Assembly: GCA_902558395.1 (NCBI GenBank)
Contig: CACEDS010000005.1
Span: forward strand, 1,770-65,769
From: an uncultured SAR86 cluster bacterium
GTDB taxonomy: Bacteria; Pseudomonadota; Gammaproteobacteria; Magnimaribacterales; D2472
Direction: 5' to 3'
DNA length: 64,000 nt
The notes beneath the pieces were generated by a model. That model was not told the origin of the DNA. It was given only the letters and a program-made list of their open reading frames with translations, and did no database searches. The first letter of the stretch is position 1, and each line of letters begins with the position of its first letter. A program made the translations under genes and the position numbers. Shown here one piece after another: positions 35,199 to 38,282 of the stretch.

Positions 35199-35288
35199 GG
35201 AGAGATGGCAGAGTGGTCGATTGCGCTACCTTGGAAAGGTAGTAACTGGGCAACTGGTTCCGGGGTTCGAATCCCCGTCTCTCCGCCA
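35199..35288 (+). tRNA. tRNA-Ser(GGA)
   Basis: GGAGAGA/TCTCTCC acceptor, anticodon arm CTACC-TTGGAAA-GGTAG, long variable arm, GTTCGAATC, encoded CCA. Confidence 0.97.
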
Positions 35289-35337: not shown

Positions 35338-35922
35338 ATGAACAGCTTTAAGCTACAAAATTTTTTAGCAATTTCTATAACTGTTTACTTTATAACTATT
35401 TTTGTATTTTCTTTTTGGTCAGGTCTTACACAACAGTCACCTCAAGCCTGGATCGGAAGTCTTGCATATTTACCACATGGCTGTAAGGTCATGTTTATTT
35501 GTTTTTTTAGATACAAAGCTGTACCAGCATTATTTTTAGCTGAATTTACTGGGCAATTATTAGAATGGCCAAATACCGATATGACTTACATGTATGCAGG
35601 ATCAATTACATCAATCTTATGCGTTCTTTTGGCTGCAGAGTTAATAAAATGGACCCAAATAGCTAGCTTTAAACCATCTGATATCTTTCTGGAAGTTAAT
35701 TTTAATAATTATAAATATATAGTATTTGTTATAATTCTATCAGCGCTCTTTAATTCAATATTTACCAATCTTGTCCTATCACAACTTAATCAAATTCCAA
35801 TTAATGTTGCAGTTATAGCAAGGTTTTATGCAGGTGATATTATTGGTTCATTATTATTTATATTGTTTGCAGTAATAGCTTTTAAATTACAGACGAAATT
35901 AATGCTAACTCAAAAAAATTAA
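35338..35922 (+). CDS. MASE1-like integral membrane protein, paralog 1
   Basis: About 5-6 TM segments; YLPHG and GDIIGS motifs resemble the MASE1 P..G and GD..G motifs; no output domain. Confidence 0.55.
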   Translation: MNSFKLQNFLAISITVYFITIFVFSFWSGLTQQSPQAWIGSLAYLPHGCKVMFICFFRYKAVPALFLAEFTGQLLEWPNTDMTYMYAGSITSILCVLLAAELIKWTQIASFKPSDIFLEVNFNNYKYIVFVIILSALFNSIFTNLVLSQLNQIPINVAVIARFYAGDIIGSLLFILFAVIAFKLQTKLMLTQKN

Positions 35923-35973
35923 TAAAATTAGATTACTGTTGTTAATAAATCTCATCAGTTATATATTATGTGT

Positions 35974-36267
35974 ATGAGTAAAACATATATTGAACAACTA
36001 GCTAATCTTCTTCAGATGTTACAAAATCTTGATCGAGATCTAAACCTTGTTTCATTCAATGAAACTGAGAAAAAAATTTACTATACCATTGCCTATGAAG
36101 TACATAACAAGGGTAAATGTAATATTTCTGATGTAATTGAATCATCAGGTTTTTCGCGTTCTACAGTCTACAAAGCCATTAAAGCTTTTGAAGATAAAAA
36201 AATGGTCAGATTAATACAGTCACATACAGATAGAAGAGAGGTTTTTTTAGATTTAATTACAGCTTAA
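35974..36267 (+). CDS. MarR-like winged-helix DNA-binding protein
   Basis: NISDVIESSGFSRSTVYKAIKAF HTH and SHTDRREVFL wing; promoter spacing favours ATG 35974. Confidence 0.8.
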   Translation: MSKTYIEQLANLLQMLQNLDRDLNLVSFNETEKKIYYTIAYEVHNKGKCNISDVIESSGFSRSTVYKAIKAFEDKKMVRLIQSHTDRREVFLDLITA

Positions 36268-36290: not shown

Positions 36291-36866
36291 ATGAAATATT
36301 TTATTCAAGTCTCTTTAATTACCTATATAGCATCAATGCTTGTTTACACTCTATGGTCATCTATTACTTTTGCTACCTTAGACAAAGGGTGGATTGGTAG
36401 CTTAGTTTATTTACCACATGGTTGTAGAGTTATATTTTATTGTTTCTTTGGTGCTCGATCCTTGCCAGCACTTTATGCAGCAGAAATAACTGGGCCAACT
36501 CTTGTTTGGGGTGATCAATATTTAGACTACTGGACTTTTGCAAGCATATCTTCCTTGCTATCAGTAGTAGTTGCTGTTGAAATTGTAAAGTGGTCTAGAG
36601 TTTCTACTTTCAATTACAACATTCTTAAAAAGGTTAATTTTGCTAATTATAAATTCCTTATTTTTGTAATTATTATATCTGCTTTATTTAATTCAATATT
36701 TACTAACTTAGTTCTTTCAATCATCAATGGAGTAAATATTGGTGTTGAAGTAATTGCAAGATTCTTTATTGGCGATATGCTTGGCTCGACTGTTTTCATA
36801 ATTTTTTTAATTATTTTATTTAATTTACTGCAACAAAGAAGACTCTATAAAGTTCACGAAGACTAA
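36291..36866 (+). CDS. MASE1-like integral membrane protein, paralog 2
   Basis: Shares WIGSLxYLPHGC, SALFNSIFTNLVLS and VIARF..GD..GS with 35338..35922. Confidence 0.55.
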   Translation: MKYFIQVSLITYIASMLVYTLWSSITFATLDKGWIGSLVYLPHGCRVIFYCFFGARSLPALYAAEITGPTLVWGDQYLDYWTFASISSLLSVVVAVEIVKWSRVSTFNYNILKKVNFANYKFLIFVIIISALFNSIFTNLVLSIINGVNIGVEVIARFFIGDMLGSTVFIIFLIILFNLLQQRRLYKVHED

Positions 36867-36875
36867 ATTGTTGTA

Positions 36876-36895
36876 TACTGTATATTTATACAGTA
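36876..36895. promoter_or_regulatory. LexA (SOS) box within a sigma70 promoter
   Basis: TACTGTATATTTATACAGTA (CTGT-N8-ACAG) lies between -35 TTGTAT (36871) and -10 TATAAT (36894); 17-bp spacer. Confidence 0.88.
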
Positions 36896-36905
36896 TAATT
36901 TCATT

Positions 36906-37118
36906 ATGAATAACGTAGTAAAATTAAACAACCTTGATCCTATTGTTGAAAGATACTTATCATCAGTAGATAAATCATCAATTAAAAAGACTTTAGCATT
37001 TGAATATTTTAATAATGATGTTAATGAACTTGATAAATTCATTAGTAGTCAAATCAATAATAAAGTCCTTACATCAGATCCTATTGAACCTAAGGCTCAA
37101 ATGGAATTTTCATTCTAA
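36906..37118 (+). CDS. Orphan 70-aa protein, predicted SOS-inducible, with C-terminal beta-clamp-type motif QMEFSF
   Basis: ORF track; dedicated promoter with LexA box; no recognisable family. Confidence 0.75.
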   Translation: MNNVVKLNNLDPIVERYLSSVDKSSIKKTLAFEYFNNDVNELDKFISSQINNKVLTSDPIEPKAQMEFSF

Positions 37119-37173
37119 TTTTTTATAAAAAAAAATTTCTTTATTTAGGTTTTTTTCTGTATATAATTTAAGA

Positions 37174-37389
37174 GGGTGTCTTGTTAAGTGGTTTTTTAAG
37201 GGGACTGTTTAGCATTTTTATTATTACCCTGAACATGGAGGTGGTCCTATTAGTATTTATTTAATAACAGGAAACGGAGGATTCACCTTTTGACACGAGG
37301 TAATCTGTAAGTTTTCGACTAGTTCTAAATTGCAGTCGCAATTAAACTAGATTTTTTTATAACCCCCAAGTTTTCTTGGGGGTTTTTTT
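37174..37389 (+). ncRNA. Candidate small RNA (or sORF-bearing RNA) with SD-like/GGA motifs
   Basis: TATAAT at 37162; GC-richer than other spacers; hairpin 37319-37350; intrinsic terminator; no ORF of 60 aa or more on the + strand. Confidence 0.5.
37361..37389 (+). terminator. Rho-independent terminator
   Basis: AACCCCCAAG-TTTT-CTTGGGGGTT followed by a T run. Confidence 0.9.
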
Positions 37390-37400
37390 ATCTTTTTAAT

Positions 37401-38282
37401 ATGGAAATAAGGTACTGGATACTATTAACTTTTTTAGGTGCTCTTTGGGGAAGCGCTTTTATGTTTATTAAAGTTGCCACACCAGAGTTTGGACCTGTTG
37501 CTTTAGTTAACACAAGATTAATTATTGCTTCATTAATTTTCTTACCCATTCTTTTAAGAAATAAATACATTCATCTACTAAAACCAATATGGAAACAAGT
37601 TTTGGTATTAGCAGTAATGAATAACGCTATTCCTTTTACATTATTTTCATATGCAAGTTTTGGTGCTGACTCAAATATATTAGCCATATTAAATGCAACT
37701 ACTGCATTTAATACCATGATGATTGCTTATCTATGGATAGGTGAGAATGTTACTTTAAAACAATTATGTGGTTTAGTAATTGGTTTTATTGGTGTGTTCA
37801 TTCTTGTAAATCCGCAAAATTCTAATACTACTTTAATTTCAAGCTTGTCTGCTTTACTGGCTGCTTTTTTCTATTCGTTTTCTACAGTTTATATACAAAA
37901 AAATTCTGTTAACGCTAATAAAATGGTATTGATAGGGTGGTCGATTATATTTAGTGCTGTAATTATGTTACCTGTAACTATTTTTTACCTTCCAGAATCA
38001 ATACCTTCAGCAGCTGCCATCTCATCTGCTATTTGGCTTGGTGCTATTTCAACCGGTTTGGGCTTCATTGGGTACGTAAGATTAATTGATAAAATTGGTG
38101 CTGTAAAAACTTCAACTGTTGCTTACTTTCTTCCTGTCTTTGGTATTATCTGGGGAGCTATATTTTTAGATGAACTTATAACTTCAACTATTGTCATTGG
38201 ATGTTTTGTCGTCCTTATTGGAATTTATCTTTCTAATTCAAATAAAAAAGGGTATGTTAATTCTGTAAATACTAAAGCTTAG
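37401..38282 (+). CDS. DMT/EamA family transporter
   Basis: LWGSAFMFIK, NNAIPFTL, YFLPVFGIIWG; about 10 TM. Confidence 0.9.
   Translation: MEIRYWILLTFLGALWGSAFMFIKVATPEFGPVALVNTRLIIASLIFLPILLRNKYIHLLKPIWKQVLVLAVMNNAIPFTLFSYASFGADSNILAILNATTAFNTMMIAYLWIGENVTLKQLCGLVIGFIGVFILVNPQNSNTTLISSLSALLAAFFYSFSTVYIQKNSVNANKMVLIGWSIIFSAVIMLPVTIFYLPESIPSAAAISSAIWLGAISTGLGFIGYVRLIDKIGAVKTSTVAYFLPVFGIIWGAIFLDELITSTIVIGCFVVLIGIYLSNSNKKGYVNSVNTKA

Follow-up and report, generated by a model that had tools for sequence, protein, structure and literature searches.

What does a protein of 70 residues do whose gene stands behind a LexA-type operator and whose chain ends in a peptide of the kind that binds the DNA sliding clamp? 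The question is raised by a small open reading frame in the window (the whole stretch of 64,000 nucleotides of SAR86 DNA analyzed here, to whose numbering all coordinates below refer unless a contig is named), which a first-pass annotation had singled out as an SOS-controlled orphan microprotein. The elements it listed are all found where it had placed them: a 24-bp palindrome, TATACTGTATA-TT-TATACAGTATA (36874-36897), contains the motif CTGT-N8-ACAG; the hexamers TTGTAT (-35; 36871-36876, plus strand) and TATAAT (-10; 36894-36899, plus strand) are spaced by 17 nt; and the -10 hexamer ends 6 nt before an ATG (36906) that opens a plus-strand reading frame of 70 codons (36906-37118, stop included), ending in PIEPKAQMEFSF (QMEFSF). 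The operator proper, TACTGTATATTTATACAGTA (36876-36895, assigned to neither strand), is a perfect 20-nt box of the type TACTGT-N8-ACAGTA; it takes up the whole promoter spacer and extends into the -10 hexamer.

Taken by themselves, these elements do not stand out. The core CTGT-N8-ACAG is not significant in the window (one match against 0.52 expected, and at least one in 40 of 100 shuffles), and the promoter is absent from a simple consensus promoter scan of the window, because TTGTAT matches TTGACA at three of six positions only; the case therefore rests on context and conservation. Conservation was read from 50 homologous loci encoding 41 distinct proteins, the box being scored where upstream DNA is present (one locus lies at a contig end). 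The full TACTGT-N8-ACAGTA box precedes the gene in 40/40 of these loci, and the -35 hexamer in relatives is closer to consensus (TTGACT, TTTACA, TTGAAT), at a spacing of 17-18 nt. A -10-like hexamer lies 4-10 nt before the ATG in all 29 homologous loci scored for it, most commonly at 6 nt (11 loci), as in the window. No Shine-Dalgarno sequence precedes the ATG at 36906, and none of 28 of the 29 homologous loci has a Shine-Dalgarno-like word, the remaining one showing a GGA trinucleotide only. From this arrangement we infer that the mRNA is leaderless or near-leaderless.

The context is given by the host genome (1.29 Mb in 8 contigs, 33% G+C, 93% complete). The annotation had taken the box for a LexA operator, and the genome bears this out: it encodes LexA (LexA_DNA_bind match, 84.5 bits) and RecA, and boxes of the same type stand before recA, umuDC and lexA itself. 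With up to one mismatch, TACTGT-N8-ACAGTA occurs at five places in the 1.29 Mb (a reversed control pattern at three), four of them directly upstream of recA, umuDC, lexA (with one mismatch) and the microprotein frame; at the fifth the spacer is rich in G+C. Scanning with a matrix derived from the four operator sites, a circular procedure of use as a screen only, turns up one extra, weaker LexA-like site, TACTGTATATATGTATAGTT (C2:197499-197518, outside the window), located 27 nt upstream of a frame of 130 codons, behind which lies a gene for a DNA methyltransferase; the site could belong to a fifth target of the SOS response or be left over from a mobile element. Judged by its strong operators, the SOS regulon of this organism would comprise recA, lexA, umuDC and the microprotein gene. 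Two of its members serve as an internal control for the start of the microprotein: lexA and umuD (C3:68539-68572 and C3:93997-94034) have the same layout of a box, 13 nt devoid of a Shine-Dalgarno sequence, and an ATG, which makes the leaderless start credible and suggests that leaderless SOS transcripts may be the rule in this organism; recA, unlike lexA and umuD, has a Shine-Dalgarno sequence (AGGAG). Across the order, lexA is found in 58/61 genomes and a single Y-family polymerase in 55/61, both spread over all four families. Box, promoter and companions make it probable that the gene is repressed by LexA and induced by DNA damage in vivo.

The reading frame stands alone: before it ends a gene for a membrane protein (stop at 36866), after it comes the promoter that serves an RNA element, and no conserved partner frame was found beside it in the loci compared. 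A minus-strand frame in the same place (36863-37042) was considered and rejected as lacking support. Searched with the single protein, 33 of 61 related genomes yield a relative, and metagenomes yield 295 proteins, the latter all unnamed or 'hypothetical'. Among the 154 genomes of the order with a completeness of 80% or more, a profile built from 26 members detects the protein in 75; the matches fall into its own family, f1 (61/74), and the sister family f4 (13/20), with none in the 30 genomes of f2 or the 29 of f3, even though both of these keep lexA and umuC or umuDC. Against 1.84 billion representative proteins, the profile has 58 matches, all short and many of them truncated or chimeric metagenome calls; two (P0150, P0156) carry unrelated N-terminal extensions. 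A homologue of 59% identity occurs in a single-cell genome that is tabulated as SAR86 in PMC4611503, which identifies the clade as SAR86.

Throughout this set the frame stays open with conserved ends in 40 of the 41 distinct proteins, down to about 30% identity, and among eight ungapped homologues dN/dS lies between 0.14 and 0.50 in 25 of the 28 pairs with unsaturated dS. Together, these comparisons indicate that the gene is a real, conserved, clade-restricted gene of two families in one order. The term 'orphan' in the annotation is too strong, because the gene forms a clade-restricted family of its own. Since f2 and f3 do without it while retaining lexA and umuC, and since it is a pseudogene in one genome (G011), it must be dispensable for the SOS response as such. 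That pseudogene (L015, G011:C3:109474-109683), in a genome of the same genus, has three TGA and two TAA codons in frame and keeps a perfect LexA box and the promoter. The homologues of f4 (L035, L036) have 54 residues, without the region of the first helix, and QKSLF or QKDLF as their tail; the final base of the LexA box is overlapped by their ATG, and next to their loci a 16S rRNA gene, encoded on the opposite strand, has its 3' end. Contigs assembled from RNA libraries overlap the reading frame in three of four runs (X1, X2 and X4, not X3), with library DNA as a possible source; they show no start, strand or induction, and no conclusion on expression is drawn from them.

The protein divides into three parts. 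Residues 12-55 (36939-37070, plus strand) are predicted by AlphaFold2 to form a bundle of three helices (12-19, 23-34 and 39-55), residues 56-64 (37071-37097, plus strand) form a linker of variable length and sequence for which no secondary structure is predicted, and residues 65-70 (37098-37115, plus strand) are the tail motif QMEFSF. The prediction, made with a 26-row alignment, has a mean pLDDT of 78.5, with block means of 89-93 over residues 11-50; past residue 55 it shows no secondary structure, the block means being 62 for residues 51-60 and 72 thereafter. In the alignment M1, D22, A31, F35 and Q65 are invariant (26/26) and F70 is conserved in at least 90% of rows; the core of the helical domain consists of D22, K23, A31, F32, Y34 and F35, and the linker accumulates insertions and deletions and has no conservation. 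The protein is without a membrane segment.

The annotation had recognized no family for this protein, and none has emerged from the searches. Neither the microprotein nor any of the 26 members matches a Pfam family at cut-off, SulA and DinI included, and the family finds no match in NCBIfam or PHROGs. A profile search against the sequences of the PDB has a best E-value of 6.5, Foldseek finds no PDB structure at an E-value of 0.001 or below, the best Z of VIA-align over 48,161 chains is 4.7, and the ESM Atlas yields no usable match. Between Z 3.3 and 4.3, VIA-align returns many three-helix segments of sigma region 4, LuxR proteins and homeodomains, which we read as a generic arrangement. The helical domain of about 45 residues belongs to no known sequence or fold family, and searches of the open-access literature on SAR86, LexA and the SOS response, and clamp motifs found no description of such a protein.

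The tail is the part of the protein that speaks most directly of a function. Natural clamp-binding motifs follow the patterns Q-aliphatic-x-[L/M]-[F/L] or Q-aliphatic-x-[L/M]-x-[F/L] and sit in disordered termini or loops, as set out in PMC11139829, and QMEFSF fits the hexameric pattern given there except in position 4, which is Phe instead of the published Leu or Met. The tail lies in a predicted disordered terminus, with Q65 invariant and the flanking linker variable, and the check proposed in the annotation, whether tail and box are conserved together, comes out in its favour: next to the box at every scorable locus, a tail of the form Q-x-x-[LMFI]-(x)-[FLIW] is kept in 40 of the 41 distinct homologues, the exception being the pseudogene. 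Both lengths of the motif occur across the family, the pentameric one as QLELF(S), QLAMF, QLELL, QKSLF, QKDLF, QPELL and QPELI, the hexameric one as QLELSF, QLELPF, QLEFSF, QLEFRF, QLEFTF and QMEFSF. Position 4 is Leu or Met in 21/40 homologues and Phe in 19/40; a few homologues have Pro or Lys in position 2. Two proteins of the host offer a comparison: its Hda begins with MNKPKQLTFPW, a hexameric motif that likewise has Phe in position 4, and its UmuC carries QYSLF, presumably in the place of the clamp motif of E. coli UmuC. As a background, the strict clamp motif ends 6 of the 3039 host reading frames of at least 50 codons (the microprotein included), and a loose form of it ends 54.

How such a tail would sit on the clamp was modelled by co-folding the microprotein with the host DnaN (26-row alignment), in three runs and with three controls. 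The complex has an ipSAE of 0.68 (0.69, 0.68 and 0.65 in the individual runs) against 0.00, 0.01 and 0.00 for the controls, the mark applied to this score being reached by 58 of 80 solved complexes and by 2 of 110 mismatched pairs. Between the runs, at least 79% of contacts coincide, and the pLDDT of the partner is at least 70. The modelled interface consists of residues 59-70 in the canonical peptide cleft of DnaN, in keeping with the annotation's view of the tail as clamp-binding. In host numbering, which by alignment to solved clamps equals the E. coli type up to about residue 190 and is one higher thereafter, the model contacts 9 of the 12 residues of subsite I (T172, G174, H175, L177, P242, R246, V247, V360 and M362) and 6 of the 8 of subsite II (H175, N320, M362, P363, M364 and R365), the lists of subsite residues being those in PMC11139829. 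The model sets Q65 against subsite II and lodges F68 in subsite I, an arrangement that PMC11139829 describes for known ligands. Across 26 aligned clamps from the order, the residues that line the pocket show no variation or next to none. Because many clamp-peptide structures have been solved, the score may in part reflect the memory of the model; what the co-fold shows is the likeness of the tail to a clamp ligand, short of binding.

Taking operator, conservation and model together, we consider it probable that the locus is a LexA-repressed, leaderless or near-leaderless SAR86 gene for a soluble protein of 70 residues that binds the sliding clamp after DNA damage. In such a mechanism, RecA-stimulated cleavage of LexA would free the promoter and the microprotein would accumulate; its tail would dock into the hydrophobic cleft of DnaN, the site common to Pol III alpha and epsilon, Hda, the delta subunit of the clamp loader and UmuC, so that the helical domain would be held on clamps, at forks as well as gaps, in competition with other clients. 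An SOS-induced ligand would compete for a cleft that UmuC, Hda, the clamp loader and the replicase all use, and the conservation of the helical domain argues that something is brought to the clamp as well, which makes a tethered factor more likely than a protein that does nothing but compete. The likeliest outcome would be that replication is held up once damage has occurred, or that access to the clamp shifts toward Pol V, which is the only translesion polymerase of the genome. Because the conserved helical domain is without an assigned partner or activity, this effect on replication is something that we infer. Of the annotation's own refuting conditions, none that the analysis covered went against it, and its interpretation is supported. 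The more specific proposal of a minimal substitute for ImuA/B, also made in the annotation, finds no support in anything analyzed here.

Known systems offer several comparisons. Like the clamp clients Pol II, Pol IV, UmuC, Hda, Pol III alpha and epsilon and MutL, the microprotein has a short motif with Gln at its head and two hydrophobic positions at its end; in these clients the motif sits in a disordered terminus and occupies a two-subsite cleft, which for the microprotein is the case in the model only. The Q-P variant of MutL, given in PMC11139829, is echoed by the homologues that end in QPELL and QPELI. The microprotein differs from the clients in that a three-helix bundle, some 45 residues long, is its sole domain, with neither an enzymatic nor an AAA+ module beside it, and its family differs in the Phe that about half of its members have in position 4. 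[quoted passage not shown] Both are toxins of toxin-antitoxin systems, held in check by an antitoxin and ClpXP, whereas the microprotein stands alone under a LexA operator; no antitoxin or adaptor gene in an operon with it was found at the locus or at those of its relatives. It matches no family profile of Pfam or NCBIfam.

A further analogue is E. coli UmuD2C, which is SOS-induced, interacts with the beta clamp and slows replication before translesion synthesis, as described in PMC4045847. Of its two components, UmuD resembles LexA and cleaves itself, and UmuC is a polymerase; the microprotein is unrelated to either and much smaller, and belongs to the same regulon as umuDC. SulA, SidA, YneA and SosA are, like the microprotein, short LexA-controlled effectors devoid of DNA-repair enzyme activity. 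They act on the division machinery, and most of them are membrane-anchored. From proteins of this type the microprotein differs in being soluble and in having a clamp-type tail. Its modelled binding mode is that of known clamp clients, and as a stand-alone LexA target without family or antitoxin it differs from all of its nearest analogues.

Other readings have been weighed against a brake or competitor. The protein could be a clamp-tethered adaptor for translesion synthesis or gap repair, in which the tail does no more than localize it; we think this unlikely, and equally so the particular form in which the helical domain recruits or regulates UmuD'2C, RecA filaments or SSB, or shields clamps at gaps from unloading. 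The domain is conserved beyond the needs of a spacer (D22, A31 and F35 invariant, K23, F32 and Y34 as consensus), the homologues are mostly acidic (pI 4-6 in 22/26), which fits protein binding better than DNA binding, and umuDC, with the single Y-family polymerase, is the only SOS effector operon that strong operators in the host genome reveal beside recA, lexA and the microprotein gene. Against a role as adaptor, however, the fold resembles only generic three-helix arrangements (Z at most 4.7), and f2 and f3 keep umuDC without the microprotein gene.

A different target altogether is considered improbable. Small LexA-controlled proteins elsewhere are often division inhibitors, and SulA and UmuD are substrates of proteases; by analogy, the microprotein could be a checkpoint effector, such as a SulA-like inhibitor of division, whose hydrophobic C-terminus could serve as a degron of the Lon/ClpXP type that limits its lifetime. 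No match to SulA occurs in the 93%-complete host genome, and in f2 the fourth box controls a protein of about 62 residues with a C-terminal membrane helix, which has the usual look of such an inhibitor. The microprotein itself is without a membrane segment, however, and its invariant Gln, the fixed spacing and the coexistence of pentameric and hexameric forms answer to the needs of clamp binding, not to those of a degron; moreover, it is exactly the tail segment that the co-fold puts into the cleft, with controls at 0.01 or below. The f2 protein is unrelated to the microprotein: at L100 (G046:C1, about 360020) and L104 (G040:C2, about 371227) a perfect LexA box overlaps its ATG, and it has a hydrophobic C-terminal helix (MKDIYRQNRPSGQP...); possibly it is an SOS effector of the membrane type that occupies the corresponding regulatory slot. 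In the f3 genomes G038 and G041, LexA boxes are found only at recA, lexA and umuDC.

Modulation of RecA or LexA, in the manner of DinI, RecX or PsiB, would equally be a way for a small, mostly acidic, helical protein under a LexA-type operator to tune the SOS response, and DinI has no match in the host genome; but the microprotein resembles neither DinI nor RecX in sequence or fold, recX is already present elsewhere in the genome, and the conserved clamp-type tail would be left unexplained, so that we regard this as very improbable. That the frame is open by chance and the box controls something else, for instance by read-through into the structured RNA downstream, is hardly credible: although no terminator-like site lies between the frame and the terminator of that RNA (37361-37384) and RNA-library contigs cannot prove expression, the homologous frames are open with conserved ends in all but one case, dN/dS does not exceed 0.50, the fold is predicted with confidence, the RNA has a conserved extended -10 promoter of its own, and several genera keep frame and box without the RNA.

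Returning to the clamp-binding microprotein, a broader reading would place it within the economy of the organism. SAR86, one of the most abundant heterotrophs of the sunlit ocean, is exposed to UV stress at all times and has a genome of about 1.3 Mb. We offer it tentatively, the balance leaning somewhat against it, that the SOS response of SAR86 has been pared down to four operons, the fourth of which, the leaderless microprotein gene, would encode an effector of a new class that reprograms the clamp, replacing a SulA-type division checkpoint by one that acts through replication; in a variant of this reading, held just as tentatively, the microprotein would gate the single translesion polymerase. 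In either form of the reading, the sister lineages would fill the slot with an unrelated membrane microprotein or leave it empty. If it is indeed one of only four LexA targets kept, the microprotein is probably central to surviving DNA damage. A dedicated SOS-induced clamp ligand would, if real, be a mechanism new to the literature searched, and would add a natural binder of the peptide cleft to a site that is a target of antibiotic design.

The surroundings of the gene offer several observations of their own. Upstream lie a tRNA (35199-35285) and two paralogous membrane proteins of about 190 residues (35338-35922 and 36291-36866) that have no Pfam family, with a 99-residue regulator of the MarR/TrmB type (35968-36267) between them. 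Downstream, a conserved structured RNA of about 225 nt (about 37168-37395, in the stretch 37155-37395, plus strand) starts right after the microprotein frame and precedes a gene for an EamA transporter (37401-38282). It is equipped with an extended -10 promoter of its own, TGTATATAAT, and at 37361-37384 with a strong terminator, and stands directly before the EamA gene in 17 of 18 aligned loci. No Rfam family matches it. An identity as 6S RNA was rejected, since the host 6S RNA is found at C1:39782-39955, and so was one as SRP RNA, for which there is neither a match to RF00169 nor a fitting motif layout; a search for the small SRP RNA (RF00169) returns nothing at E 10 or better in the 93%-complete genome, and the SRP RNA of the host may be divergent or unassembled. 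The element is a candidate for an orphan riboswitch, a leader or a small RNA. Compensatory changes occur in 17 of its 49 predicted pairs, its fold has a z-score of -3.66, it is covered very deeply in the RNA-library contigs of four runs, and it contains a conserved GGAGGUG(G/A)UC that is complementary to the 3' end of 16S rRNA.
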